Assembly (NCBI RefSeq): GCF_058153355.1 | Contig: NZ_CM177019.1 | Reading direction: 5' to 3' (one strand) | Length of the DNA: 64,000 nucleotides | Shown here: positions 1 through 52,158 of the stretch, in pieces | Numbering within the stretch: position 1 is the first letter of the stretch | Layout: every line of letters begins with the position of its first letter | Notes under the pieces: generated by a model | What the model was told of the DNA's origin: nothing | Databases searched by the model: none | Seen by the model: only the letters and a program-made list of their open reading frames with translations | Program-made: the position numbers and the translations under genes

Positions 1-289
1 TTGGAATGTTAACGCCTGCAATGACTTCATAATGCTCTTTGTCGACGACAATGCGGCTGGCAGCATTGAACGGGCTGCCTCCCCATGTATCAACGAGAAA
101 CAGCACGCCTTTAGTGGTGTCGAGTTTTGCCAACTGAGCGTTGTACTTTTCAATCAGCGTTTCGGCATTTTCACCTGGAACGAAATCGATCCAGCCGACG
201 TTTTCCTGCTCGCCTAACAGCATTTCTGCCGTTTTAAGCAACTGCTCTGCAGCCCAACCATGTGTGCCTATAACAATAGCAATGGTCAC
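1..289 (-). CDS. manX: PTS mannose-specific EIIAB component, N-terminal part (gene runs off the window start)
   Basis: Minus-strand translation from GTG at 287-289 reads (M)TIAIVIGTHGWAAEQLLKTAEMLLGEQENVGWIDFVPGENAETLIEKYNAQL..., the recognisable ManX N-terminus; divergent from yoaE as in K-12. Confidence 0.85.
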   Translation of the reverse strand, partial: MTIAIVIGTHGWAAEQLLKTAEMLLGEQENVGWIDFVPGENAETLIEKYNAQLAKLDTTKGVLFLVDTWGGSPFNAASRIVVDKEHYEVIAGVNIP

Positions 290-751
290 TTGCTACCTCC
301 TTTATTATCGTTAACACCTCAACGTGCCAGATGTATTTTTGAATCGTCGTCCACAATCGAATCGATTCAGATAAGGGCTACAACAAAAAACCCCTGCGTT
401 TCGCGATTTATTTTAGATATCGAAAAAATTATTTTATGTGATGAAGATCCGTAATTTAACTTTCGATTAGCAGAAATTTCGAAAGGTAAAATATCCTTGT
501 CACATTCGTTTGCAAAGGAAGGTAAATCTTTGCCAAATCAGATGTGTCTCTGATATGTTTAACTCCCGTTTAACAACCATGGAGTATAGGGCAGTAGCCC
601 GCAGTATGGATCGTCACCGACGTCATTTCAGCATCAGGCCTTTTAACGCCTGCCTTTCTGGCACTCTATGCCGCACCTTTCGTTTGCATTTTGTCGTTAC
701 GCCTGCATTATTTCTGGCGTCGAATAGCTATTCCTTAAGCAGGAGCTTGTC

Positions 752-2308
752 ATGGAATTCTTAATGGACCCCTCAATTTGGGCGGGGCTACTCACGCTTG
801 TTGTTCTCGAAATTGTGCTGGGTATCGATAACCTGGTCTTCATCGCCATTCTTGCTGACAAACTGCCGCCAAAACAACGCGATAAAGCGCGTTTGCTGGG
901 ATTATCACTGGCGCTGATTATGCGTCTGGGGCTGCTGTCGCTGATTTCATGGATGGTCACGCTGACCAAACCGCTCTTTACCGTCATGGATTTCTCCTTC
1001 TCCGGACGCGACCTGATTATGTTGTTCGGGGGGATATTCTTGCTGTTCAAAGCAACAACCGAACTGCATGAACGGCTGGAAAACCGCGATCATGATTCCG
1101 GCCACGGTAAAGGCTACGCCAGTTTCTGGGTGGTCGTCACACAGATCGTCATCCTTGACGCCGTCTTCTCGTTGGATGCGGTGATTACTGCTGTAGGGAT
1201 GGTTAACCATCTACCGGTGATGATGGCTGCGGTGGTGATTGCGATGGCGGTTATGCTGCTGGCATCGAAACCGCTGACGCGATTTGTTAACCAGCATCCA
1301 ACGGTGGTGGTGCTCTGTCTGAGCTTCCTGTTAATGATAGGTCTGAGTCTGGTGGCAGAAGGTTTCGGTTTCCACATTCCGAAAGGTTACCTGTATGCCG
1401 CGATTGGCTTCTCGATCATCATCGAAGTGTTTAACCAAATTGCGCGTCGCAACTTTATTCGTCACCAGTCGACTTTGCCGCTGCGAGCGCGTACTGCCGA
1501 TGCCATCCTGCGTTTGATGGGCGGGAAACGTCAGGCCAATGTTCAGCACGATGCCGATAACCCGATACCGATGCCGATCCCGGAAGGCGCGTTTGCCGAA
1601 GAAGAACGTTACATGATTAACGGTGTATTGACGCTGGCGTCGCGTTCTCTGCGCGGGATCATGACGCCGCGCGGTGAAATAAGTTGGGTTGACGCTAATC
1701 TCGGGGTGGATGAAATCCGCGAGCAGCTGCTCTCTTCACCGCACAGTCTGTTCCCGGTATGTCGCGGTGAACTGGATGAAATTATCGGTATCGTGCGTGC
1801 CAAAGAACTGCTGGTGGCGCTGGAAGAGGGCGTTGATGTGGCGGCGATTGCTTCGGCGTCTCCGGCAATTATCGTTCCGGAAACCCTCGACCCGATCAAC
1901 CTGCTGGGCGTGCTGCGTCGTGCTCGCGGGAGCTTCGTTATCGTGACCAACGAGTTTGGTGTGGTACAAGGCCTGGTCACGCCGCTGGATGTGCTGGAAG
2001 CCATTGCGGGTGAATTCCCGGACGCTGACGAAACGCCGGAAATCATTACCGATGGTGACGGCTGGCTGGTAAAAGGCGGTACAGATTTGCATGCCTTGCA
2101 GCAGGCGCTTGATGTTGAGCACCTTGCCGATGACGATGATATCGCGACGGTCGCGGGCCTCGTGATCTCGGCAAATGGTCACATTCCCCGTGTGGGCGAT
2201 GTGATTGATGTAGGGCCACTGCATATCACCATCATTGAAGCCAATGATTATCGTGTTGATCTGGTTCGCATTGTTAAAGAGCAACCGGCGCACGATGAAG
2301 ATGAGTAA
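752..2308 (+). CDS. yoaE: UPF0053 inner membrane protein (TerC-like membrane domain + CBS/CorC domains)
   Basis: 518-aa [37 protein letters not shown]...; length and sequence match my recollection of YoaE; position next to manX. Confidence 0.92.
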
Positions 2309-2311
2309 GCG

Positions 2312-3910
2312 TTAACGTAACGGCATAACGGGCGTGATATGTCCATTATGCCGGGCGGGCGGCGGTTGGCTGCCCGCCAGCCATTTGGGAAAATCATGTA
2401 GCGGCATCGGCTGTGCGTACAAATACCCTTGCAAAATATGCACGCCATGACGGCGCAAATACTTCGCCTGTTCTTGTGTTTCCACACCCTCCGCCACCAG
2501 TTCAATATTCAGTCTTTGCCCCAGTGCGATGATGATATCGGTCACCGTCGAGTTAACCGCGTCAGAACCTATAGCTGCGGTAAATGACTTATCAATTTTC
2601 AGCACGTCAGGACGTAATGTTTCAAGCCAGGAAAATGAACTGTTGCCGGTGCCGAAGTCATCAATCGCCAGTTTGACGTTTTTACGATGCAGCTCGCGGG
2701 CAATCCGATAATCAACATCCAGTAAGGCATCGCGTTCGGTGATTTCGAGGATCAGTTGCTGAATCGGGTGAGCGCTAAACCAGTACTGATTGAGATCTTT
2801 TATCAGCACACCACGGCGAAAATGGCTGGGTGCGACGTTAATGCCAACATGAAACTGACTACTCATTGGGAAAACATGCCGCTGACGGATGGTTTCTGCC
2901 ATCACATAGCGGGTCAGTGGCACAATTAAATGATGTTCTTCCGCGATAGGAATAAACACATCCGGTGAAATCCAGCCCTGACGTGGATTGTTCCAGCGCA
3001 GCAAAATCTCTACACCAATACATTGCTGGCTGCGCGCATTAAGCAAAGGCTGGCAGAACAATTCGAACTCATGTTGCGCCAGGCCCAGATTGATTTCACG
3101 GGAAAAACTCATCCGGTAAGCGGTCGCCAGCCAGGCGATATAGCCCACAAGTAAACTTAGCAGCACCGCCAGCGGTAATTGTGTTGGAAGATAGTGCCAT
3201 GCCAGCGCCGTAGCCCCCGGACCATTAACGTTAATGGTAAAAGGAAAGCGTTGCGAAGAAACATGATAGTTTTCATTGACTTCAGGTTGCGGAAGGGAAT
3301 CTACCAGCCCATTACCATAGAGCAAATGCCGATCGTCCACCGTCAGGCTGGCGCTACTGATTTGCGGCAGTTGTGGCTCAAGCAGCATTGCCGCCAGTAA
3401 GTCGATGTTGATCATCTCCATGACCCCAGCATTGCTACTGCCCGCTGCAGGCGTCCATTGAATCAAAACCGGACTGCCTTTAATCAGGGCATGGTCGGTC
3501 GTCAGTCGTAAAAGTGGTTGCGGTGCAGGAAGTTCAGCCAGAATGTCCACGACGGGCACATTGCGATAACCAAAAATGCTGGAGCAATAAAGTGTGCCGT
3601 CTTGCACCAGGCCAATGGATCGCACAGTTTGGAGTTTTGCCGCCTGTTTACGTAATGGCAAATGGGCGACAGAGCAGGGCAGACCAATTAGCGGAAGTAA
3701 GACTTCGCTACCTGCCTGTAGGGGAAGCAGTACTTTATCTAATTCCTCTACAGCGTGATTGGCGAATTGTACTACCCGTTGTTGATTTAAGTTACGCTGT
3801 GAAATAAATCGCACGCTCAGGGTCGAAGCGAGCGTAACGAGTGCGCAAATCGTACAAACAATCATTCGATTACGGCGATAGGTTTTAATGATCCGTTGTG
3901 CTTTTTGCAT
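2312..3910 (-). CDS. pdeD: c-di-GMP phosphodiesterase, EAL domain with N-terminal membrane/periplasmic sensor
   Basis: ORF 2312-3940; EAL-domain signatures (ELHRKNVKLAIDDFGTGNSSFSWL); start trimmed to ATG at 3908-3910 (MQKAQRII...) giving 532 aa; convergent with yoaE. Confidence 0.85.
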   Translation of the reverse strand: MQKAQRIIKTYRRNRMIVCTICALVTLASTLSVRFISQRNLNQQRVVQFANHAVEELDKVLLPLQAGSEVLLPLIGLPCSVAHLPLRKQAAKLQTVRSIGLVQDGTLYCSSIFGYRNVPVVDILAELPAPQPLLRLTTDHALIKGSPVLIQWTPAAGSSNAGVMEMINIDLLAAMLLEPQLPQISSASLTVDDRHLLYGNGLVDSLPQPEVNENYHVSSQRFPFTINVNGPGATALAWHYLPTQLPLAVLLSLLVGYIAWLATAYRMSFSREINLGLAQHEFELFCQPLLNARSQQCIGVEILLRWNNPRQGWISPDVFIPIAEEHHLIVPLTRYVMAETIRQRHVFPMSSQFHVGINVAPSHFRRGVLIKDLNQYWFSAHPIQQLILEITERDALLDVDYRIARELHRKNVKLAIDDFGTGNSSFSWLETLRPDVLKIDKSFTAAIGSDAVNSTVTDIIIALGQRLNIELVAEGVETQEQAKYLRRHGVHILQGYLYAQPMPLHDFPKWLAGSQPPPARHNGHITPVMPLR

Positions 3911-4040
3911 GCGGGCCACCCTGTAAGCGTATGGCGACAAACGCCTGACGCAACAGTGGAAGTGTAGTGGGGAAAATTACAGCAGACGAGAAAGCAGGGA
4001 TAAATTCGCCCATCCGTTGCAGATGGGCGAGGATAAAGTA

Positions 4041-5405
4041 TTAGTCACACTGGACTTTAATTGCCAGACCACCACGAGACGTTTCGCGGTACTTGGCGTT
4101 CATGTCTTTACCGGTTTCGTACATCGTTTCGATGACTTTATCCAGCGAGACGCGCGGCGCACTGGTGCGACGCAGGGCCATCCGCGCGGCGTTAATCGCC
4201 TTGACTGACGCAATGGCGTTACGTTCAATGCACGGCACCTGAACTTGCCCTGCAACAGGGTCACAGGTCAGACCGAGGTTGTGCTCCATGCCAATTTCCG
4301 CCGCCACACAAACCTGTTCCGGGCTACCGCCCAACAGCTCGGCAAGGCCCGCAGCAGCCATTGAACAGGCAACACCCACTTCGCCCTGGCAACCGACTTC
4401 CGCACCGGAAATAGAGGCGTTCATTTTATACAGTGCACCAATCGCGCCCGCAGCCATAAAGTAACGGGTATAGATGTCCGGGCTAACCGATTCAATAAAG
4501 TGGTCATAATAAGCCAGCACTGCCGGAACAATGCCACAAGCACCGTTGGTTGGCGCAGTTACCACACGACCACCGGCGGCGTTTTCTTCGTTAACTGCCA
4601 GCGCAAACATGTTTACCCAGTCAATGACATTCATCGGATCGTTAGACAGTTTATCGCTGGAAACCAGCATCCGGCGCAGGGCCGACGCACGACGCGGCAC
4701 GCGCAGCGGGCCTGGCAGCACGCCTTCGGTGTTCATTCCGTGATCGATACATGCCTGCATGGTTTGCCAGACATGCGCGAAATACTCGTCGATCTCTTTC
4801 TTGCTGTGCAGCGCCAGTTCGTTCTGCATAGCGAGACCAGACAGCGAATAGCCGCTTTCATTACAGTACGCGAGCAGTTCGGTGGCAGATTTGAACGGAT
4901 ACGGCACGCTCAATTCGTTAGCGGCATCCTGACCAAAGTGTTCTTCATCGACGATAAAACCGCCGCCGATGGAATAATAAGTTTTGCTGTAGACGACTTC
5001 ATCGCCGTTATAGGCGTGGATTTGCATACCGTTTTCATGCAGCGGCAGGTTGCCGTTATGAAAACGCATCCCGTTGTCGCGCGGGAAATCCACTTCATGC
5101 CGTCCCTGTGCCAGCAGCAGACGTTCGCGCTCTTCTACGTCGCGAATAAAACCGGGAATACTGTCGATATCCACGGTGGCAGGTTCGTTACCTGCAAGAC
5201 CCATAATAATGGCGATATCGGTGTGGTGGCCTTTACCCGTCAGCGACAGTGAACCATAAACGTCCACGGCAACGCGAGTAACGCTATCCAGTAAGCCTTT
5301 TTCGACCAGATCATCGACGAACTGTTTACCCGCCTTCATAGGCCCTACGGTATGGGAAGATGAGGGACCAATCCCCACCTTAAACATGTCGAATAGACTA
5401 ATCAC
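4041..5405 (-). CDS. sdaA: L-serine dehydratase 1 (4Fe-4S)
   Basis: 454-aa [29 protein letters not shown]...; full-length match to SdaA by recollection; synteny. Confidence 0.95.
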
Positions 5406-5588
5406 GATAATACTCCTGACAAGGTGACTGGACTTCCAGTAACGAACTAATAACAGCGCATAGTGTAAGAGGGAACGCGGCGACTGGCTTAACTATTCAC
5501 ATGAATTAAACTAATCAAAAACCGCGATTTAACTAATATTGCGATGATTGTCTCAAGTAGTGTTTTGTAGATGTAAAGATAAGTATAG

Positions 5589-6167
5589 TCAGGGTTTCAC
5601 ACCAATTTGCAGCGCCAGCTCACGAATTATGCCTGCGGTCATTCCCCATACAAAATACTGTTCATACCAGGACAGCCATACCCGATGTGAATCGCCACGG
5701 CGGTAGATATCTAAAGGGTGATAACGACCCAGATGTAATGCCTGGGCGAGCGGCATTTCAAACACAGCGGAGACTTCATCTTCACTGGCGCGATACGGTA
5801 GATCGGGCGGGATAATGCCGACCACCGGGGTTACCTGGTAGCCAGTTACGCTATCGACGGGCGGCAGCACGCCGATAACTTCAACGGCGGAAGGCGGTAT
5901 AGCGACCTCTTCTTCAGCTTCGCGCAGCGCAGCGGCGATAACTGACGCGTCCGTATCATCCACTGCGCCGCCTGGAAACGCCACCTGTCCGGCGTGTTTA
6001 CGCAGATGAATGGAGCGTTGGGTAAGCAATAACCCTGGCTGTGGTCGGCGTACAATGGGGATCAACACGGCAGCCTGACGATGATTTAACGTTTCCCGGT
6101 TAATTTGCGGGCGCAAAAGTTGAAAGCGCGATAAAAAATCATCAAGCGTCAGGCTACGGTATTCCAC
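5589..6167 (-). CDS. nudL: CoA pyrophosphohydrolase (Nudix family)
   Basis: 192-aa ORF with Nudix box ([25 protein letters not shown]); synteny sdaA-nudL-pabB. Confidence 0.9.
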
Positions 6168-6169
6168 GT

Positions 6170-7531
6170 TTATTTCTCCAGTTGCTTCAGGATACGATTA
6201 ACTTTATCAAAAGTTTCCTGATATTCCGCTTCTTCCTGGCTATCAGCGACAATACCACCCCCAGCGGAACAGTAAATTTGCCCGTTATACGCAGTCAGCG
6301 TGCGGATAGTAATGCTGGTATCCATGTTGCCGCAAAAGCTCAAATAGCCAATGCTGCCGCACCAGGCATTGCGTCGCTGCGGTTCCAGTTCGTCGATAAT
6401 TTCCATAGCCCGTACTTTCGGTGCTCCAGTTATTGAGCCACCAGGAAAAGCTGCGCGCAGCAGATCGCTGGTGTGTAACTGTTCTGGTAGTTGCGCCGTT
6501 ATGGTGCTGACCAGATGATGCACGGCAGGGAAGGGTTCCACCACGAACAGCTCTGGTACTTTTACCGAACCTGCTACGGCAACACGACCGATATCATTAC
6601 GCATTAAATCGACAATCATCAGATTTTCGGCACGATCTTTCGCTGAGTTCGCCAGTTTTTCTGCTTGTTTGCTATCTTCCTGAGGATCGGGCAGGCGTGG
6701 TAGCGTGCCTTTAATCGGGCGGGTCTGGATTTCACTATTATCACAAAGAATAAACCGCTCTGGCGAAAGGCTTAAAATCGCGCCCTGTTCAAGACGTAAA
6801 TAAGCGCTAAATGGCGCGCGGTTGGCCTGATTAAGCTGAAGGAATGCCTGCCATTCATCGCCAGAATAGGTCGCATGGAAACGCTGGGCGAGATTCACCT
6901 GATAGCAATCACCGCTGTGCAGATATTCCTGTACCTGGCGAAATTTTTCGCCGTACAGCTCGCGGGTCATATTGGATTGCCAGTCGGAAGTGAGCGTGAA
7001 ATCTTCCTGCGGCGAGAATTGCTGGCTTTCCAGCCAGGCCCGACGGGCATTGACATCATTATGACTCAGCAAAGAAACTGTTTGACGCTGGTGGTCGACA
7101 ATGAGCGCCCAGTCGTAGATACCCACAGCCATATCCGGCAGAACGATATCTTGCTGCGCAATTTCTGGCAGTGACTCAAAACGGCGGCCCAGATCGTAGC
7201 CAAACAACCCCAGCGCGCCGCCCTGAAATGGCAAATCTTCGTTATGCGCTGGGCGAATGTCTGCGCGATCCAGCACCTGCTGGAGCACCTGTAGCGGGTC
7301 ATCAGTGGTCGTTGTGCGTTTTTCGCTTTCACTAACAACGGTTTCTTTACCGAAAGTGGTTAAAGTGCAAATCGGCTCGGCGACCACAATATCAAAGCGG
7401 CTATATGGATGATCGGCATAGCCGGAGTGTAAAAGCATCGCCCACGGCAGGTGACTTAAGCGGGAGAAATAAAATTCAGCGGCGTCCTGACGCCAGGGTA
7501 AAGTAATCACAGCGGGAGATAACGTCTTCAT
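6170..7531 (-). CDS. pabB: aminodeoxychorismate synthase component I
   Basis: 453-aa [40 protein letters not shown]...; chorismate-binding fold motifs; synteny. Confidence 0.95.
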
Positions 7532-41296: not shown

Positions 41297-41464
41297 TTGA
41301 ATTATTCAGCTTTTTGAGTCTGTTATTAAGTGCGAACAAAAATACTTGTTTGACGTCTTGATTGTTCGATTTAGCGGTTGATAGGTTAAATGCAACACTG
41401 ACGAGTATAACCTGGCCTACGATGTCAATGAGGAAATGTAGGCCAGAGATGTATTCAACTAATA

Positions 41465-42106
41465 TTACTCCTGCGTCTCTTCCCAGTCTGCCAGCGTATA
41501 TAGCGTTGCCCCAGCTGCTGACATCTCCATAAACGCGTGCGCACTGTCCTGTGGCTGGATATTCACGCCACGACAACCATCGGTAATCACATTAACCTTA
41601 TAACCTAACTGTAACGCGTCCAGCACGGTAAACTTCACGCAATAGTCAGTAGCCAGGCCCATAATGATCAATTCATCGATTTCATGATCGCGTAACCAGT
41701 CATCGAGCGTGGTTTTCTGCCGACGGCCGTTATCAAAAAAGGCACTGTAACTGTCAACTAAAGGATTTTCGCCTTTATGGAACACCGCTGCGATCGCTTT
41801 TTGGTTCAGTAACGGATGTAATTGTGCGCCTTCACTGTTCTGCACACAGTGATCTGGCCAGAAGGTTTGTGGCAAACCGTCGAGTTGGCCTGGCGTATAA
41901 GGCTCTACACCGTGCTGACTGGCAAAACTGCCGTGATTCGCCGGGTGCCAGTCTTGACTGGCGATAACCGCTTCACCGCGCGACTGGCACCAGTCAATCA
42001 GGCGGTTAGCGACATCCACCGTACTGTCACCTTCCGGCACGGCGAGCGCGCCACCAGCACAGAAATCATTTTGTAAATCGACCAGTAACAGGGCGCGAGG
42101 GGGCAT
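41465..42106 (-). CDS. pncA: nicotinamidase / pyrazinamidase
   Basis: ORF 41465-42124; start at ATG 42104-42106 (MPPRALLLVDLQNDFCAGGALAV...) giving 213 aa. Confidence 0.93.
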   Translation of the reverse strand: MPPRALLLVDLQNDFCAGGALAVPEGDSTVDVANRLIDWCQSRGEAVIASQDWHPANHGSFASQHGVEPYTPGQLDGLPQTFWPDHCVQNSEGAQLHPLLNQKAIAAVFHKGENPLVDSYSAFFDNGRRQKTTLDDWLRDHEIDELIIMGLATDYCVKFTVLDALQLGYKVNVITDGCRGVNIQPQDSAHAFMEMSAAGATLYTLADWEETQE

Positions 42107-42116
42107 TGCAGTCTCC

Positions 42117-43133
42117 TTAATCATCCGGCGTCAGTTCGCCGCGCAGGTTTTGGCTCATGGCCTTGCGAATGGTTTCAGTATCCAGTTCCTGGCTAAGCAG
42201 GTAATGCAGTTTGGTTAGCGTGGCTTCTACAGTCATATCTGCACCGCCAATAACGCCGGCATGGGCGAGGGCGTTACCGGTGGCATAACCCCCCATGTTC
42301 ACTTTACCGGACATACATTGTGTCAGGTTGACTACCACAATTCCGCGATCGCTGGCTTCTTGTAATTCTTGCAGGAAGGCTTTGTTTTGTGGCGCATTAC
42401 CCACGCCATATGAGCGCAGAATCAATGCTTTCACCGGTTGGCGCAGAAAATTGCGCACGACGTCAGCAGAAATCCCCGGATAAATCGTCACTACGCCAAT
42501 TGGTTGTGGGGTGATTGGATGAACGATCAATTCCCCTTCACCGTGCGGGGCTGGGGGGGTATTCAAACGACGAATGTGGATACCTGCTTCCAGTAACGGA
42601 GGAAGGTTTGGAGAGGCAAACGCATCAAAACCATCGGCATGGGCTTTGGTGGTACGGTTGCCACGATAAAGTCGATTATTAAAAAAGAGAGTTACTTCGT
42701 TGATAGGATAATTCGCCGCAACGTACAACGCATTCAGCAGATTAATTTGTCCGTCAGAGCGTAACTCAGCCAGCGGGATTTGTGACCCTGTCACAATGAC
42801 CGGTTTACCGAGATTCTCGAGCATGAACGACAGCGCAGAGGCGGTATACGCCATCGTGTCGGTGCCGTGCAGAATGACAAAACCATCATAGTCGTCATAA
42901 TGCGCTTTAATATCTTCAGCAATATGCTGCCAGTCTTCTGGCGTCATATCTGAAGAGTCCATCAGCGGCGTATATTCATGAATGGTGAAATCTGGCATCT
43001 CCGGGCGATGGAATTCCGGCATCAGCGCCAGTTGGCGTTGTAGATGACCTGACACCGGAATATAACCCTGCTCGGAACGCTGCATCCCGATGGTCCCGCC
43101 CGTGTAGGCGACGTAAATTGATTTCTTTTGCAT
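42117..43133 (-). CDS. ansA: cytoplasmic L-asparaginase I
   Basis: 338-aa ORF MQKKSIYVAYTGGTIGMQRSEQGYIPVSGHLQRQLALMPEFHRPEMPDF...; asparaginase TGGTIG motif. Confidence 0.95.
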   Translation of the reverse strand: MQKKSIYVAYTGGTIGMQRSEQGYIPVSGHLQRQLALMPEFHRPEMPDFTIHEYTPLMDSSDMTPEDWQHIAEDIKAHYDDYDGFVILHGTDTMAYTASALSFMLENLGKPVIVTGSQIPLAELRSDGQINLLNALYVAANYPINEVTLFFNNRLYRGNRTTKAHADGFDAFASPNLPPLLEAGIHIRRLNTPPAPHGEGELIVHPITPQPIGVVTIYPGISADVVRNFLRQPVKALILRSYGVGNAPQNKAFLQELQEASDRGIVVVNLTQCMSGKVNMGGYATGNALAHAGVIGGADMTVEATLTKLHYLLSQELDTETIRKAMSQNLRGELTPDD

Positions 43134-43264
43134 GATATTGATATGAATGATATCGAAAGAGCAAAAGTATATACGTGAGGGGCAGCGAGCGCACCTGGTT
43201 ACTCTGTGGATATGAGAAAAGTCCGGCAGAACGGAGGGATTAGTGTCCCGCCGGAGAAAAGTGG

Positions 43265-43987
43265 TTAATCCTGCAACGCATAGGTTACGGTGGTGACTAC
43301 GCGTACCGTTTTATTAATCGCCGTAGGATCATCTTCATCACTGCCACTGGCGAAGATCTGGAACACGCCTTGTGAGGCATCGCTAATTGACCCCACCTGG
43401 CTACCTGAGTCCGTTGCAAATTGTAATGCTGCGTTGCGTGCATCTTTGGTGGCGGCGGCAATCATCTCAGCGCGCAGTGCGCCAATACCATTAAAGCGAT
43501 AGGCGACTTTGCTCTCAGCGATAGCGCCCTCCGTAGCGACTTGCAGTTCGTTTAATTTCGCGACGACTTTTTCGACAGCAGCAACATTATGGGTTTTTAT
43601 CGTCACTGACCCGTCTGCGTTATAGCGTGGCATTGTGGGATCATCTTTCAGATAAAAGGAATCTGTTCGCTTGCTTTTCCATTGGCCCAGGGTTATCTCT
43701 TTCTCGTTAATCCCCTGAGCATTGAGTTCGGCAACAATTTTTTTCTGCGCGTCTTCCAGTTTCGGGAACAGTTCGCCGGGAATATTACCCTTAAAGTTAA
43801 TCGCAATTGTTAATTCTGCCGTATCTGCGCGAACTTCTTTTTCAGAAAGCCCACGCACATTTACATAACGGTTATTGGTTTTTAAATGTTTAACACCATC
43901 GCCAACAAAATAACCACAGGCGCTAATCCCCAGTCCGAGGACGATAGCGGCAATTAAAGAGGGGGCCTTATTCACTGATAACTCCAT
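43265..43987 (-). CDS. SIMPL-domain (DUF541, YggE/BP26-like) protein with N-terminal signal anchor
   Basis: ORF 43265-44077 (270 aa from GTG); the more plausible start is ATG 43985-43987 (MELSVNKAPSLIAAIVLGLGISACGYFVGD...), 240 aa, a hydrophobic N-terminus followed by a SIMPL-like domain; sits between sppA and ansA. Confidence 0.7.
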   Translation of the reverse strand: MELSVNKAPSLIAAIVLGLGISACGYFVGDGVKHLKTNNRYVNVRGLSEKEVRADTAELTIAINFKGNIPGELFPKLEDAQKKIVAELNAQGINEKEITLGQWKSKRTDSFYLKDDPTMPRYNADGSVTIKTHNVAAVEKVVAKLNELQVATEGAIAESKVAYRFNGIGALRAEMIAAATKDARNAALQFATDSGSQVGSISDASQGVFQIFASGSDEDDPTAINKTVRVVTTVTYALQD

Positions 43988-44090
43988 ATCAGATGCTAAA
44001 TGAGCAAGGGAATGTAGTGGAGAGAGGGAGTGAAAGACAGTCCGATTCAGGAGTGTGGCCGACAGCATATCGGCCACATTTTTGCAGGAT

Positions 44091-45947
44091 TTAACGCACG
44101 TTGGCGCAGGTCAGGCAAAACGCATAACGGTTTTGTGGGTCGTTAAACGCTGCCAGCTTGTCGCTTTCACTTTTAACGGTAGAGGCTACCGAGGCCAGCG
44201 GTGCAGGTAACATGGCCTGGAACGCATCTGGCAACATTGCCCGGACAGAACCAGACATATTGTCCATCACTTTGTCGAAGATGGTCGGTTCATCAACGTA
44301 GTATTCCAGATGCCACTGTTTCACTTTTGCCAGCTCTGCTGCTTTGGCAACCGCATCATCGAAATCCCCGAGACTATCGACCAGCCCGTTAGCTTTTGCA
44401 TCCTGACCGGTCCAGACGTGGCCCTGGGCGATTTTATCAATCTGCTCCGGCGTCGAATGACGCGCATCAGCAACCAGCGTGATAAAGCGTTTATAGCCAT
44501 TCTCAATGCTTAACTGCATCATCTGCTGCGCTTCCGGCGGCAGTGCCTTGGTGATAGAAACATCCGCCAGCGGTGAAGTTGAGACGCCATCGGTATGAAC
44601 ACCAATCGAATCCAAACTATTTTCTACGGTAGTGATCACGCCGAAGATACCGATAGAACCGGTCAGGGTGCTGGGGTTAGCCACAATGTAATTAGCTGGC
44701 GTGGAAATCCAGTAACCACCAGATGCCGCCATGCCGCCCATCGATACAACCACAGGCTTACCCGCTGCCCTGGCGGCTGCCAGTTCAGCGCGAATCACTT
44801 CAGAGGCGGTAACGCTGCCGCCAGGGCTATTAACACGCAGAACAATCGCTTTCACTTTCGGGTCAAGGCGAGCGTCGCGGATTTGTGCCGCAGTGGTATC
44901 ACCGCCAACATTCCCCTGAGTTTCCTCGCCATCCATAATTGCGCCATTCGCGAAGACGACACCGATGCTGTCACCGGTATCTGCCGGCGTTTTCAATGCG
45001 TAATCGTAATAACTGATGGCGCGATAATTTTTATCAGTCTTACTCCAGCCGAACTCTTTGGTCAGAGCTTTTTCGATTTCGGCACTTGATGCCAGTGCAT
45101 CGACCAGCTTGTTTTCCAGCGCATATTTCGCGGTATCGCCACCTGTTTTGGTTAAACCCTCAAGCAACCCTTGCGCACCAGGGAATACCTGCTGAGCAGG
45201 GATCTGCCGGTTAGCGGCAACAGTATTCAGATAGTTTTGCCACAGCTCACCGATCCAGCGGCTGTTAGCTTCGCGGGCTGCCGGTGACATATCATCACGA
45301 ATAAACGGTTCAACGGCAGATTTATACGTACCCACGCGGAACACATGGGTGGAGACTTTCAGCTTATCCAGTAACGATTTGTAGTACAGACCGTTGGTAG
45401 CAAAACCGTGCAGATCCACCACGCCTTGTGGAGATAGCCAAATTTTGTTGGCGAAACTGGCGAGATAATATTGCCCCTGGCTGTAGTTCTCGCCTATGGC
45501 ATAAACTGGTTTCCCGCTGTCACGAAACTCTTTCAGGGCTTTGCCGATGTACTGCATAGACGGCTGGTCGCCGCCTGCGAAGTTTTTCAGATCCATCACG
45601 ATACCGGTGATATTGCGGTCGTCCTTTGCCTGGCGAATGGTGTTGACGATATCAAACAGTGAGTTTTCCTGCAGACGATCGGAACTGGCACCAAGGAGCT
45701 GGCGGCTTAGCTTACTAAACCGCTGAGAACTGTCGGGTTTATCGACGATTACACCAGATATGTCCAGCAGCAGCGCGCCACGACTGGCCGTTTCTTTCGA
45801 ATCACCACCACTGACCTGCATCCAGATCCCCACACCAACCAGTACGAGAAAAATAAAGAACAGGTTAAGTACCATTTCACGGACGAAATTCAGCAGACGC
45901 CACGTCCATTTAAAAAATCCGGCAATAAATCGCCAAAGGGTTCGCAT
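44091..45947 (-). CDS. sppA: signal peptide peptidase A (protease IV)
   Basis: ORF 44091-46091; start at ATG 45945-45947 ([38 protein letters not shown]...) giving 618 aa; tandem S49 peptidase domains. Confidence 0.93.
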
Positions 45948-46107
45948 GTATTCTCCCAACTTAAGGTCACACCTGTCACAGGCGCAATAGATGTGGTTAT
46001 CGTAATGACCCAACCGGCACTTGTCAGCAGGAATTGCGGACTGTGCTGTAACAAAATCCACTCTCGTGTTAATTTTGTGAATAAATATCATGACAGGAGT
46101 TAATCAA

Positions 46108-46659
46108 ATGGATGCACTCGAACTATTGATCAATCGCCGTAGCGCCTCCCGCCTGGCTGAACCTGCGCCAACGGGTGAACAACTGCAAAACATACTGCGA
46201 GCGGGTATGCGTGCCCCGGACCATAAGTCCATGCAACCGTGGCATTTTTTTGTGATTGAAGGGGAAGGACGCGAGCGTTTCAGCGCATTATTGGAACAGG
46301 GGGCGATTGCTGCCGGTAGTGATGACAAAGCTATCGTCAAAGCGCGTAATGCGCCGTTCCGCGCACCGCTCATCATAACGGTGGTGGCAAAATGCGAAGA
46401 AAATCATAAAGTCCCGCGCTGGGAACAGGAAATGTCTGCGGGATGTGCGGTCATGGCGATGCAAATGGCAGCAGTTGCCCAGGGGTTTGGCGGCATCTGG
46501 CGCAGTGGCGCATTAACTGAAAGTCCGGTAGTGCGTGAAGCATTCGGTTGCCGTGAGCAGGATAAAATGGTCGGTTTTCTCTACCTTGGTACGCCGCAGT
46601 TGAAAGCATCTACATCGATAAACGTTCCGGACCCGACGCCGTTTGTGACTTATTTCTGA
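46108..46659 (+). CDS. ydjA: nitroreductase-family protein
   Basis: ORF 46090-46659; start at ATG 46108 ([39 protein letters not shown]...) giving 183 aa. Confidence 0.9.
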
Positions 46660-46775
46660 TAATTGTCGCGAAACTGTCTGGATTGTGAGCAAAGGCGCAG
46701 GAATTCAGACACTCTCACTTATCACTTCATGGAATGAGGGTTACCATACCCGGATTGCATTGACAGGAGATGTCC

Positions 46776-47819
46776 ATGAGCGAGAACTCGATTCGTTTGA
46801 CCCAATACAGCCACGGTGCAGGTTGCGGCTGTAAAATTTCCCCAAAAGTGTTGGAAACCATCCTGCACAGTGAGCAGGCGAAGTTTGTTGATCCGAATTT
46901 GCTTGTGGGTAATGAAACCCGCGACGATGCGGCGGTGTACGATCTGGGCAATGGCACCAGCGTTATCAGTACCACCGACTTCTTTATGCCGATCGTTGAT
47001 AATCCTTTCGATTTTGGCCGCATTGCGGCGACTAACGCCATCAGCGATATCTTCGCGATGGGTGGCAAACCGATTATGGCGATTGCGATCCTCGGCTGGC
47101 CTATTAACAAACTTTCCCCTGAAATTGCCCGCGAAGTAACCGAAGGTGGACGCTATGCATGCCGTCAGGCGGGTATTGCGCTGGCTGGCGGTCACTCCAT
47201 CGATGCGCCGGAGCCGATTTTTGGTCTGGCGGTAACGGGGATCGTACCGACCGAGCGGGTGAAGAAAAACAGTACTGCACAAGCCGGATGCAAACTGTTC
47301 CTGACGAAACCGCTGGGAATTGGCGTTCTTACTACGGCTGAGAAAAAATCACTGCTGAAACCAGAACATCAGGGACTAGCGACGGAAGTGATGTGCCGGA
47401 TGAACATCGCAGGCGCGTCCTTTGCCAACATCGAAGGCGTAAAAGCGATGACTGACGTGACTGGTTTTGGTCTGCTGGGGCATTTGAGCGAAATGTGTCA
47501 GGGTGCTGGTGTGCAGGCGCGAGTCGACTATGAAGCGATCCCGAAACTGCCGGGGGTTGAAGAGTACATTAAGTTGGGCGCAGTGCCTGGCGGCACCGAA
47601 CGTAACTTTGCCAGCTATGGGCATCTGATGGGTGAAATGCCGCGTGAAGTGCGCGATCTGCTGTGCGATCCGCAAACTTCTGGCGGTCTGCTGCTGGCGG
47701 TCATGCCGGAAGCAGAAAATGAGGTCAAAGCTACAGCCGCCGAGTTTGGCATTGAACTGACGGCGATTGGCGAACTGGTGCCAGCGCGCGGCGGTCGTGC
47801 CATGGTTGAGATCCGTTAA
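46776..47819 (+). CDS. selD: selenide, water dikinase (selenophosphate synthetase)
   Basis: ORF 46770-47819; start at ATG 46776 ([30 protein letters not shown]...) giving 347 aa; Cys17 in the glycine-rich loop. Confidence 0.95.
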
Positions 47820-47823
47820 TTCA

Positions 47824-49779
47824 ATGCGGTTGTTTATTGCCGAAAAACCGAGTCTGGCGCGCGCCATTGCTGATGTCCTGCCCAAACCGCACCGGAAAGG
47901 CGATGGCTTTATCGAGTGCGGTAATGGCCAGGTGGTGACCTGGTGTATCGGTCACCTGCTTGAGCAGGCGCAGCCAGACGCCTACGACAGTCGCTATGCG
48001 CGCTGGAACCTGGCCGATCTCCCCATTGTCCCGGAAAAGTGGCAATTACAGCCACGACCCTCCGTGACCAAACAACTTAACGTCATCAAACGCTTTCTGC
48101 ATGAAGCCAGCGAAATCGTTCACGCCGGTGACCCGGACCGTGAAGGGCAATTGCTGGTAGATGAAGTGCTGGACTACCTGCAACTGGCACCAGAAAAGCG
48201 CCAGCAGGTACAGCGTTGTTTGATAAACGACCTGAACCCGCAGGCGGTTGAGCGGGCTATCGATCGTCTTCGCTCCAATAGCGAGTTTGTACCACTGTGC
48301 GTTTCTGCGCTGGCGCGAGCACGAGCCGACTGGTTATACGGCATCAATATGACCCGCGCGTACACCATTCTCGGTCGTAATGCGGGTTATCAGGGCGTGC
48401 TTTCCGTGGGACGCGTGCAGACGCCCGTGCTCGGGCTGGTGGTGCGCCGCGATGAAGAAATTGAAAACTTCGTGGCGAAAGACTTCTTTGAAGTCAAAGC
48501 GCATATCGTGACACCTGCCGATGAGCGGTTTACCGCTATCTGGCAACCGAGCGAAGCGTGTGAACCGTACCAGGATGAAGAAGGGCGCTTGTTACATCGT
48601 CCGCTGGCGGAGCATGTGGTCAACCGCATCAGCGGCCAACCGGCTATTGTCACCAGCTATAACGATAAACGGGAATCAGAATCCGCACCGCTGCCGTTTT
48701 CGCTTTCGGCGTTGCAGATTGAAGCGGCTAAACGCTTTGGTCTGAGTGCGCAGAACGTGCTTGATATCTGCCAGAAGTTGTACGAAACGCACAAGCTAAT
48801 CACTTATCCGCGTTCCGATTGTCGCTATCTGCCAGAAGAGCATTTTGCCGGACGCCACGCGGTGATGAATGCTATCGGCGTCCATGCGCCGGATCTGTTG
48901 CCGCAACCAGTGGTAGATCCAGATATACGCAACCGCTGTTGGGATGACAAAAAGGTCGATGCGCACCACGCCATCATCCCGACCGCGAGGAGTTCTGCCA
49001 TCAACCTGACGGAAAACGAGGCGAAGGTCTATAACCTGATTGCTCGTCAGTATTTGATGCAGTTCTGTCCGGACGCGGTGTTCCGCAAGTGTGTTATCGA
49101 ACTGGAAATAGCCAAAGGCAAATTTGTCGCTAAAGCCCGTTTTCTTGCTGAAGCAGGCTGGCGCACACTGTTAGGCAGCAAAGAGCGCGATGAAGAAAAC
49201 GACGGCACGCCACTGCCTGTGGTGGCGAAAGGCGATGAGTTGCTGTGTGAAAAAGGTGAAGTGGTAGAGCGGCAAACCCAGCCGCCGCGCCATTTTACCG
49301 ATGCAACACTGCTTTCGGCGATGACCGGGATCGCGCGCTTTGTGCAGGATAAAGATCTGAAAAAGATCCTTCGTGCCACCGATGGTCTGGGGACAGAAGC
49401 AACCCGTGCCGGGATTATTGAACTGCTGTTCAAGCGTGGCTTTCTGACCAAAAAAGGGCGCTATATCCACTCCACCGACGCCGGAAAAGCGTTATTCCAT
49501 TCACTGCCAGAAATGGCTACGCGACCGGACATGACCGCGCACTGGGAATCGGTGCTGACGCAAATCAGCGAAAAGCAGTGCCGCTATCAGGACTTTATGC
49601 AACCGTTGGTGGGGACGCTGTATCAGTTGATTGATCAGGCCAAACGTACGCCGGTGCGGCAGTTTCGCGGCATAGTGGCTCCAGATGGCGGAGAAGGAAA
49701 TAAGAAGACTTCACCCCGTAAGCGAGCAGCGAAAAAAAGCCCGCCATCAGCAGAGGCGGGCAGTGGAGTGATAATGTAA
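47824..49779 (+). CDS. topB: DNA topoisomerase III
   Basis: ORF 47767-49779; start at ATG 47824 ([47 protein letters not shown]...); Toprim and topoisomerase IA domains; 4 bp after the selD stop. Confidence 0.95.
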
Positions 49780-49799: not shown

Positions 49800-52158
49800 G
49801 TCGGGTAGCAGCGATTCATTACTGTCTCGCCGCCCCCTAAGAACGGTACGTGCGAGTTTCCCCGCATACCGCTCAAGCCTTTATAAGCCTCCACCTTGTG
49901 GGAGACCAGCGTCATTACTATGTAGTTGTCGATGGCAGTTGGGATGGAGTAGGACTAAATTGCTCACATCATCGCTACCGCCAAGAGATTTCTTGAGCAA
50001 ATGATGAACATTCCATCCTGTATCGCGATTAATCGGTTGCTCACATAAAGGGCAGCGCGATCCTTGCCTTTTCCATATAGCGAGAATCCTTTTCTGCCCC
50101 TGTTGGGATTTCTTCCATGAGTAGTCCAGCCTTCTTTCGAAGTATGTTTCCCACTCGGGATCATATGGATTTGCCGTTCCCTTTATTTTTATATAGCGAT
50201 TAATATGGATGTCGCTGGCCCGGGACAGAACATATTTCCTACCCTCCGGATCGACTCCATAAAATCGACCATGACACATTTTTATTGTCGTGTGGTACTT
50301 TCGGAAGATCCATCTCCGGCCTTTGCCGGGATGTCTCCTTCTGCACCACTGCCAGATTTTGCGCCAGATTTGGTTGTCGACATAGTTAAATGTCTCTGCC
50401 GATGCTACATGTTGGTGATAGTTTGCCCACCCGGTGATGATTGGATTAAGCAGATTTATTAGCACCCATGCAGGAACCGTTCGGTTACCTTCAATAGTCT
50501 CTCTGATCTTGCTAAGAAATTGTTTAACGTTTTTCTTGGCTGGTCTGATTATGAGTTTTCTACCGAAGCGTCGGACGTGCTGCCCAAGGAAATCAAATCC
50601 GTCAGTAATGTGAGTGATGACCGTTTTCTCTTCGGATAACGTCAGCCCTCTTTCTGCAAGAAATGATTTCACCAACGGAAGAACATTCTCCTCCAGAAGT
50701 TCTTTCGACTTTCCGGAAATGATGAAATCATCAGCATACCGGACGAAGTGAACCTGATGTTTCCTGAATGTTTTTGAGCGTTTCGGACCAAAGCGATTTT
50801 GCAGCAGTCTTTCCAGTCCATCCAGGGCCATGTTTGCCAGAACTGGAGATATGATTCCTCCCTGGGGTGTACCCGAGAGAGTTTTGCTGAATATGCTTTT
50901 TTCGATGATCCCGGCTTTCAACCAATTACGGAGTATTTGCTTGTCCATAGGAATATTTTCAAGCAGCCACTCGTGGCTAATGTGTTCAAAGCATCCTTTA
51001 ATATCGCCTTCCAGAACCCATTTCGAGGCGTTCCGGGAACTATACATATTACATACCTGTTGAATGGCGTCAGCCGTACATCGCGCTGGTCTGAAACCAT
51101 AACTGTTGTGATCTGCATTAGTTTCCGATACAGGCTCCAATCCCAGCAGATGCAGGGCCTGCATTGCCCTGTCAAGCATGACGGGGATTCCTAATGGTCT
51201 TTTCTTGCCATTAGATTTGGGTATAAAAACTCTTTTTAGCGGTAGGGGCTTGTACCCTTTTCGCCTGAGTTTGAATATCGCTTCCCATTTTGATTCTGGA
51301 GTACTCCAGATTTGACCATCAACTCCGGGGGTTTTACGCCCGCTATTTTCCGTAACTCGTTTCACCGCCAGTGCTCTGGCGCTGAATGAGCGAACCAGCA
51401 ATCGTTGCAATCTACCGACTGTACGCCATTGCTGGTTACATGCCGCCTTTGCGATTCTTGTCTGTATGGTTTTAACGTGTTGATGGCATTTCTTCCAGTT
51501 AATGGAATGCCAACCTTTTCCGTTGATGACCGCAGTTACATTGTTAGATGTAATTTTCATACATGTCATCCAAAGAAACCTTCGCAGATGTTTCGCAATT
51601 AAAGACCAGATGGAAGTCAGCACGGTTTCCCGTTAAGGCAAATATTGAACCTCTATCCGCACGATTACAGTCCGGCTTTCGCTTTTTCCATCCTCCTTTA
51701 CCCGCATTCTCATCAGTTTGCCTTACGGTGCCCCTGCCACTAGGGCGAGAATTCGGGCTTACCAAGTTCCGACCAACATACAAAGAACGGGTTAGGTTCT
51801 GTCTATCCGCCGGGGGAGTTATTGTCCATGTATTCCCACTACGAACAGGAATAGCCTTACCCCTTACCTTTTGGTGCAAGCCTATCAGCATCTTTGGCTC
51901 GTTCTCTGTTACGACGTTTAACGACAGTTCACTATGTTAACCATACCGCCCAGCCTAGCGCTCTCGCCGCATGATGCTTGTAGCGATCAGGTTTTCTCAC
52001 GATTAACTGAAGCAATATTTGCTAAGCTACATTGTCCCAAGGGCTTCAGACAGAGCCGTTACCAGCTTTGCCTGCCTCAGTAGGCTACAACTAATGGAAT
52101 AGTTGGTTTTATATAAATAATTTATCAAAACAATATGTTGGACGACTTCTTGTCGCAC
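49800..52158 (-). mobile_element. group II intron, full length with intact intron-encoded protein (boundaries approximate, +/- 10 bp)
   Basis: Minus strand: 5' end GTGCGACAAG... at 52158; about 535 nt of domains I-III; ORF in domain IV (49881-51560); canonical 34-nt domain V GAGCGGTATGCGGGGAAACTCGCACGTACCGTTC at 49842-49875 (AGC triad, GAAA tetraloop) 6 nt after the ORF stop; short domain VI ending about 49800. Confidence 0.85.
49881..51560 (-). CDS. group II intron reverse transcriptase/maturase with C-terminal HNH endonuclease domain
   Basis: ORF 49881-51623; likely start MKITSNNV... at ATG 51558-51560; RT block with YADD catalytic motif (VHFVRYADDFIISG), maturase X region, and HNH/En motif (CPLCEQP...WNVHHLLKKSLGGSDDVSNLVLLHPNCHRQLH). 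Confidence 0.88.
   Translation of the reverse strand: MKITSNNVTAVINGKGWHSINWKKCHQHVKTIQTRIAKAACNQQWRTVGRLQRLLVRSFSARALAVKRVTENSGRKTPGVDGQIWSTPESKWEAIFKLRRKGYKPLPLKRVFIPKSNGKKRPLGIPVMLDRAMQALHLLGLEPVSETNADHNSYGFRPARCTADAIQQVCNMYSSRNASKWVLEGDIKGCFEHISHEWLLENIPMDKQILRNWLKAGIIEKSIFSKTLSGTPQGGIISPVLANMALDGLERLLQNRFGPKRSKTFRKHQVHFVRYADDFIISGKSKELLEENVLPLVKSFLAERGLTLSEEKTVITHITDGFDFLGQHVRRFGRKLIIRPAKKNVKQFLSKIRETIEGNRTVPAWVLINLLNPIITGWANYHQHVASAETFNYVDNQIWRKIWQWCRRRHPGKGRRWIFRKYHTTIKMCHGRFYGVDPEGRKYVLSRASDIHINRYIKIKGTANPYDPEWETYFERRLDYSWKKSQQGQKRILAIWKRQGSRCPLCEQPINRDTGWNVHHLLKKSLGGSDDVSNLVLLHPNCHRQLHSNDAGLPQGGGL

Follow-up and report, generated by a model that had tools for sequence, protein, structure and literature searches.

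What stands between sppA and ansA, and how did it come to be there? We analyzed 64,000 nt of the E. coli chromosome (contig NZ_CM177019.1; this whole stretch is called the window below), and in it the spacer between these two genes measures 957 bp (43134–44090), against 166 bp in K-12. The initial annotation, made from the letters of the sequence, had put the K-12 gap at under 200 bp, had estimated about 0.8 kb of extra sequence, and had placed within it a SIMPL-domain gene co-directional with both neighbors, which it described as inserted. The gap, the excess (about 790 bp), and the gene (43265–43975, minus strand) were all borne out. The word "inserted" is another matter, and most of what follows concerns the direction of the event. 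We consider it very probable that the gene is ordinary and chromosomal, that it encodes an envelope protein with a SIMPL fold, and that it already stood between sppA and ansA before the species of Escherichia split; on this view the strain of the window has kept it, and an old deletion allele has taken its place in K-12 and about 83% of sequenced E. coli.

Layout of the sppA–ansA Locus

Genes in this part of the window run in the order gapA, msrB, yeaC, pncA, ansA, the SIMPL gene, sppA, ydjA, selD, and topB; ansA, the SIMPL gene, and sppA are all encoded on the minus strand. EC42405 has a near-identical locus, whose RefSeq annotation was mapped onto window coordinates. The features, listed from sppA toward ansA, are as follows.

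44091–45947, minus strand: sppA, signal peptide peptidase S49, the upstream neighbor (Pfam Peptidase_S49, E = 4.6e-103; RefSeq annotation).
44054–44078, minus strand: post-sppA hairpin, just past the sppA stop codon (folding and alignment).
43976–44053, minus strand: leader (78 nt) preceding the SIMPL coding sequence; its Shine-Dalgarno sequence is GGAG at 43982–43985 (sequence reading, alignment).
43265–43975, minus strand: SIMPL-domain gene, 236 aa, GTG start, stop codon included (Pfam SIMPL, RefSeq, AF2, Foldseek, dN/dS, hydropathy).
43213–43255, minus strand: terminator-like hairpin of the SIMPL gene, with its stem-loop at 43222–43255 and a U-rich tail at 43213–43221 (folding).
43134–43212, minus strand: region upstream of ansA that is common with K-12 and has the conserved ACGTATATACT motif within it (alignment).
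42117–43133, minus strand: ansA, cytoplasmic L-asparaginase 1, the downstream neighbor (Pfam Asparaginase, E = 9.9e-64; RefSeq annotation).

The open reading frame had been put at 240–270 aa. The upper figure agrees with the frame as listed mechanically (270 aa, 43265–44077), but alignment with E. albertii and E. fergusonii shows a GTG, at 43975, to be the conserved start; GGAG lies six bases 5′ of this codon, and translation from it gives a protein of 236 aa; the in-frame ATG at 43987 is not conserved in the same alignments. The shorter extent is also that of the RefSeq call WP_001030438.1, "SIMPL domain-containing protein," and RefSeq already annotates the gene, both in ST131 and in genomes of the O157:H7/O55:H7 type. 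The copy in the window carries one private non-synonymous change, Lys100 (43677), at a position where all eight of the other copies compared, from Escherichia species and two enterobacterial contigs, have Thr.

The Encoded Protein

The domain assignment was confirmed by a match to Pfam SIMPL/DUF541 (PF04402) that spans the whole profile (positions 1–205 of 205) and scores 66.3 bits (E = 5.9e-18; the cutoff is 25.2 bits). The initial annotation had allowed that the gene might turn out to be carried by K-12 or most E. coli, or to have no SIMPL match; K-12 and most E. coli are without it, and the match is present. In the AF2 model (pLDDT 89.6), residues 4–34 form a long helix and the SIMPL alpha/beta domain follows; used as a Foldseek query, the model matched PDB entries of the SIMPL fold, 7c50 with E = 6.7e-18 and a target TM-score of 0.78 and 4hvz with E = 5e-13.

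An N-terminal anchor had also been proposed, and we find one strongly hydrophobic segment, at residues 7–25 (Kyte-Doolittle 2.1), and none elsewhere in the protein. We suppose that this single helix sets the protein in the inner membrane and that the SIMPL domain would lie in the periplasm, an orientation for which net charge gives no guide, as it is similar on either side of the helix throughout the family. An alternative is possible in Escherichia, where the sequence ISAC may allow cleavage and lipidation at Cys20; a lipobox-like motif of this kind occurs only in Escherichia and one close relative. ISAC/ITAC with Cys20 fits a PROSITE-type lipobox in E. coli, E. albertii, and L093, and one UniRef entry gives the protein the name "Lipoprotein"; the ITVC of E. 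fergusonii fails the pattern, and Cys occupies the lipobox column in only four of 65 family members. The family as a whole is of the anchor-helix type.

Insertion or Deletion: The Other Species

The order sppA–SIMPL–ansA is found also in E. albertii, in E. fergusonii, and in two further enterobacterial metagenome contigs, and the occupation of the same site in these taxa shows that "inserted" had the direction of the event wrong. Identity of the SIMPL protein to the window copy is 99.6% in ST131 and 98% in O55:H7, then 96% in E. marmotae (protein-level evidence only, from entries inside the 90% protein cluster of the window protein), 86% in E. albertii, and 69% in E. fergusonii. It is 67% in the first metagenome contig, where SppA is 90% identical, and 63% or 65%, depending on the comparison, in the second, where SppA is 75–80% identical. 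At the protein level these steps follow species distance, in the order that would be expected under vertical descent. Same-site synteny in sister taxa, taken together with this decay of identity, leads us to conclude that the SIMPL gene is ancestral here and that K-12 lost it.

For the SIMPL gene, a dN/dS of 0.07–0.13, compared with 0.02–0.05 for sppA and about 0.01 for ansA, indicates that it is under purifying selection and is evolving faster than either neighbor. Synonymous divergence between the two classes of SIMPL allele in E. coli is 0.076, of the same order as the 0.11 of the flanking genes.

E. fergusonii deserves separate comment. Along an E. fergusonii-type contig (L005, positions 1–7495, compared with window 41465–48900) divergence is mosaic: in selD and topB, identity to all E. 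coli is 94–96%, higher than the 90% of E. albertii, and in the adjoining ydjA–sppA–ansA–pncA block it is only 77–81%. Such a pattern is suggestive of recombination between species, in E. fergusonii, at this locus. Since the ydjA–pncA block is unusually divergent there, at 78–80% nucleotide identity against 95–96% in the neighboring selD–topB, the locus is mosaic and offers no clean vertical outgroup.

Two Alleles within E. coli

To survey the species we used 5426 complete E. coli genomes and queried the K-12 spacer across its junction for the empty allele. That the gene is strain-variable, as had been surmised, is plain from the counts. It is present in 943 of the 5426, always as one copy and always on the chromosome, and a full-length match to the K-12-type empty spacer, with at least 96% identity, occurs in 4481, including ATCC 25922 (an ST73 strain of phylogroup B2); the two states together account for 5424 of the 5425 genomes that match. 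Among the SIMPL-bearing genomes, 585 have a gene at least 99% identical to that of the window, O25b:H4-ST131 (phylogroup B2) among them, and the other 358 stand at 95–99%, most at about 97.6%, with O157:H7, O55:H7, and O145 (phylogroup E) included. The distribution does not cleanly follow the phylogroups: B2 is divided, with the gene in ST131 and the empty allele in ATCC 25922.

All gene-less strains have one junction in common, and this common empty allele points to a single deletion that is old. The empty spacers of K-12 and ATCC 25922 differ at 5 of 166 bases, from which it follows that the empty allele is old too. The deletion would have removed roughly 790 bp, namely the coding sequence with its leader and possibly a portion of the 3′ tail.

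Alignment of the two alleles bounds the scar. On the left, the empty spacer of K-12 is homologous as far as the post-sppA hairpin, whose stem, GUGGCCGA/UCGGCCAC, is found in the window, E. albertii, and K-12 and is one stem base shorter in E. fergusonii. On the right, homology is clear from about 85 nt upstream of ansA; 60 of the 66 bases directly 5′ of the ansA ATG are the same in the window and K-12, and the ACGTATATACT motif is kept in L093 and L096 as well. We infer that the region of this motif is the ansA promoter. Between the two flanks, 46 nt of the K-12 mid-spacer bear a marginal resemblance to the tail that follows the SIMPL gene (p about 0.045 in a shuffle test); even the tails of the window and of E. 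albertii, though homologous by position, do no better. Placement of the breakpoint by alignment with a cheap long gap returned only scattered noise. The notion that the post-sppA hairpin was inverted between the alleles was rejected because the loop comparison was uninformative and E. fergusonii carries both A- and T-tracts.

The window and ST131 differ at only four positions across 43038–44090, but by 2–5% in both flanks. Near-identity over this interval amid diverged flanks indicates that a SIMPL haplotype of about 1 kb has been exchanged by recombination. The same exchange lends itself to a different history, in which the ancestor of E. coli had the empty allele and the SIMPL gene was brought back into a few lineages (ST131, phylogroup E, and that of the window) by homologous recombination from another Escherichia species; the split within phylogroup B2 and the visibly mosaic character of the locus would also sit well with such an account. 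We nevertheless regard it as very unlikely. The SIMPL proteins of E. coli are 4% (E. marmotae) to 14% (E. albertii) removed from those of the nearest other species, and no donor was found. Moreover, the O157-type and ST131-type alleles are 2.4% apart, like ordinary E. coli core genes, and the empty alleles have diverged as well, so that both states look old in the species.

Retention of an ancestral gene beside an old deletion allele, which is the history we favor, invites speculation as to why both persist. The presence and absence of the SIMPL gene could be an ancient two-allele polymorphism kept by balancing selection rather than a case of neutral loss, with both alleles present since early E. 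coli, shuffled on the haplotype of about 1 kb, and with a protein that has a cost as well as a benefit. We rate this as very unlikely. If it were true, the cost might, for example, be that the protein is an exposed target for phage, colicin, or host immunity (compare the immunogenic BP26), and the benefit might be protection of the envelope.

Damaged copies of the locus were also seen. In at least nine genomes of the window's lineage, an IS200/IS605 tnpA lies between sppA and the SIMPL gene, near the hairpin (positions 1277–2102 of L101, equivalent to window 43976–44090; matches H18–H21). In at least three genomes IS1 splits the SIMPL gene, and one variant of the protein (P0002, 220 aa) lacks an internal segment. 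It appears that the gene is still being lost. Because most E. coli are without the gene and it is often lost, the protein is dispensable.

The lineage of the window is itself rare. Over the 24 kb from 30000 to 54000, 12 to 18 of the 5426 genomes (N96, EC42405, AST85, 2013C-4282, and others) are about 99% identical or more, and the next matches listed stand at 96.8–97.2%. Synonymous divergence of the window's sppA is 0.11–0.12 to K-12 and O55:H7, and nucleotide divergence to ATCC 25922 and ST131 is similar.

Transcription and the Relation to SppA

A consensus promoter and terminator scan of 42900–44400 found nothing, and an Rfam scan of the sppA–ansA spacer found no RNA family; after the consensus scan had given no result, the hairpins were folded directly. 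The post-sppA hairpin (44054–44078) has a dG of about −18 to −20 kcal/mol (z −3.9) and is conserved across all Escherichia alleles. K-12 and E. fergusonii have a T-run after it; the window and E. albertii have none. On the plus strand (44054–44083), the window's hairpin is followed by TTTTT, which on the gene strand is an A-tract that precedes the hairpin. In this respect it resembles a terminator facing the opposite way, though no plus-strand gene runs into it; at the E. fergusonii hairpin both tracts are found, as expected of a bidirectional terminator.

A GC-rich hairpin after the SIMPL gene had been reported at 43215–43250, and we find it at 43222–43255: it has 11 bp and a dG of −18.6 kcal/mol (z −3.6; 0 of 200 shuffles were as stable) and is followed by the tail ACUUUUCUC, with 5 U in 9. 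The terminator scan missed this hairpin because its loop is 12 nt. E. albertii, L093, and L096 also have a hairpin at this position, though of differing sequence. We suggest that the SIMPL transcript ends at this putative terminator, the gene's own hairpin with its U-rich tail. As to where the transcript begins, the promoter scan found no sigma-70 consensus site in the 78-nt leader, and this, with the lack of a U-tract at the post-sppA hairpin, makes read-through from sppA the simplest model; the SIMPL gene is probably transcribed in this way. The idea is weakened by E. fergusonii and the contig L096, which keep a canonical T-run terminator between sppA and the SIMPL gene, and the IS200/IS605 element found between the two genes in at least nine related genomes counts against it as well.

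A link to the neighboring protease gene had been suggested. One possible form of it is that the SIMPL protein would be a functional partner of SppA (e.g., a membrane adaptor or a substrate-related factor) and that the genes would form a conserved operon. The SIMPL gene and sppA are indeed adjacent and co-directional in at least six enterobacterial taxa, the spacer between them is only 55 nt in L096, the post-sppA hairpin is without a U-tract in E. albertii and in the SIMPL-bearing allele of E. coli, and both products are associated with the envelope. We still find the proposal highly improbable. An SppA or AnsA homologue lies within 4–6 kb in 0 of 86 loci of more distant homologues, and the three distant neighborhoods examined have no gene in common, the SIMPL gene standing alone among unrelated neighbors in each. 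In addition, SppA works without the SIMPL protein in most E. coli, and the canonical terminators of E. fergusonii and L096 separate the two genes. Adjacency to sppA is therefore positional and confined to the enterobacteria, and outside that group the suggested link is unsupported.

Mobility and Neighboring Variation

That a foreign SIMPL gene recently entered the spacer of this strain or lineage by horizontal transfer is scarcely credible. In favor of such an event, K-12 and 83% of E. coli do not have the gene, the protein matches include no orthologue from a named Salmonella, Citrobacter, or Klebsiella, and the nearest non-enterobacterial homologues are only 50–58% identical. Against it, the gene occupies this site in four further taxa (E. 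albertii, E. fergusonii, and the two enterobacterial contigs), the E. marmotae protein is 96% identical, protein identity tracks species distance, the two E. coli alleles stand at a synonymous divergence (0.076) typical of old intraspecies divergence, and the GC content is normal, with no mobility genes or target duplications.

The particulars are these. GC across the locus is 0.43–0.51, like that of the flanks, and neither the window's open reading frames nor its sequence gave an integrase, transposase, repeat, or target duplication there. Of the usual marks of an island or mobile element, namely mobility genes, a target-site duplication, odd composition, and absence from the site in sister species, the locus has none. 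PHROG and PADLOC searches of the locus returned no match, and for that reason an origin in phage or defense systems was dropped.

Two other differences of gene content lie nearby. Between topB and gdhA the window has a complete group II intron (49800–52106, minus strand), with Rfam matches to Intron_gpII at 49800–49876 and to group-II-D1D4-7 at 51959–52106 and a protein of 580 aa (49881–51623) that has RVT_N, RVT_1, GIIM, and HNH domains. The closest genomes leave the intron uncovered (about 10% of the 24-kb query is unmatched). The topB–gdhA gap is variable in content, holding ynjI in K-12, Hsp70/J-domain genes in ATCC 25922, and nothing in ST131 or EC42405. The second difference is the ydjE–ydjL sugar-acid cluster, about 9 kb between pncA and yeaC in K-12, which is missing from the window, where pncA adjoins yeaC at about 41297–41464. 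The cluster is missing also from EC42405 and from the E. fergusonii contig, and at least part of it lies beside pncA in ATCC 25922, ST131, O55:H7, and E. albertii. The indel of this cluster and that of the SIMPL gene are independent events.

Significance

The result is in the first place an evolutionary correction: at sppA–ansA, K-12 is the derived state, and its use as the reference makes an ancestral Escherichia SIMPL gene look like an insertion. Beyond annotation hygiene the finding has little significance, the gene being evolutionarily ordinary. A widespread subfamily of anchored SIMPL proteins that is polymorphic in E. coli does, however, provide natural strains with and without the gene, together with easy genetics, for assigning a function.

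Comparison with Known SIMPL Proteins

Three groups of known proteins invite comparison. The first is the oxidative stress defense protein of NCBIfam NF008299, known as YggE in E. coli and as OsdY in Yersinia pestis; it is in the same Pfam family (SIMPL/DUF541), is an envelope protein, and is of similar size. The signal peptide of YggE is of the ordinary cleavable kind, in place of a conserved anchor helix. In K-12, yggE adjoins argO, a locus other than sppA–ansA. The initial annotation had spoken of a YggE paralog, a description that stands at the superfamily level only: the window protein scores 20 bits against NF008299, whose equivalog cutoff is 249 (E = 3.7e-4), and BLASTP against K-12 YggE detects no pairwise similarity (E = 33). 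On these grounds the possibility that the protein is the YggE orthologue was rejected. YggE and OsdY are tied to oxidative-stress tolerance, in the passage of PMC11329713 that cites Kim et al. (2005) and in the work of Acuna et al. (2009) as it is cited in PMC3522674.

Brucella BP26/Omp28 (PDB 4hvz), the second-best structural match, likewise has the SIMPL fold and a periplasmic or envelope location. It differs in that identity is 16% and the TM-score only about 0.5, and neither its channel-like oligomer nor its immunogenicity is transferable to the window protein. By analogy with other SIMPL proteins, the most likely role is that of a non-enzymatic, possibly oligomeric, accessory protein of the envelope, either stress-protective or structural.

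The SIMPL-like protein of Campylobacter jejuni (PDB 7c50/7c51) comes closest, being the best structural match to the AF2 model, at 31% identity. A protein near-identical to that of 7c50 has been deposited as PDB 10am, "Periplasmic protein," with nine chains of this sequence. A search of the literature on SIMPL, DUF541, the C. jejuni protein, and the cryo-EM context of 10am returned nothing on this subfamily and no functional data. The subfamily itself is large, with 1830 clusters at 50% identity matching at E ≤ 1e-3 and 647 at E ≤ 1e-10; those of the 647 that stand among the 150 best listed are mostly 225–260 aa and align from about residue 6, and an alignment of 65 family sequences has 19 invariant columns. 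A contig scan with the family alignment found, among the matches listed, homologues of 32–39% identity in Bacteroidales, Sutterella, Alphaproteobacteria, Synergistaceae, and various Gammaproteobacteria.

The C. jejuni protein is only about 31–35% identical to that of the window and has no Cys or lipobox at the end of its helix. In other respects the two are built alike, with 231 aa against 236 and nearly full-length phmmer matches to 10am and 7c50 (E = 1.4e-27 and 6e-26) that begin inside the hydrophobic helix. The better of these, query residues 9–236 against 10am_A, places the window protein in the C. jejuni SIMPL-like subfamily, which has an anchor helix followed by a SIMPL domain in about 230–250 aa, and the window protein and 7c50/10am both carry the C-terminal motif block AEMIxxAT.xARNAAxxFAxDSxSxxGxIxxASQG.
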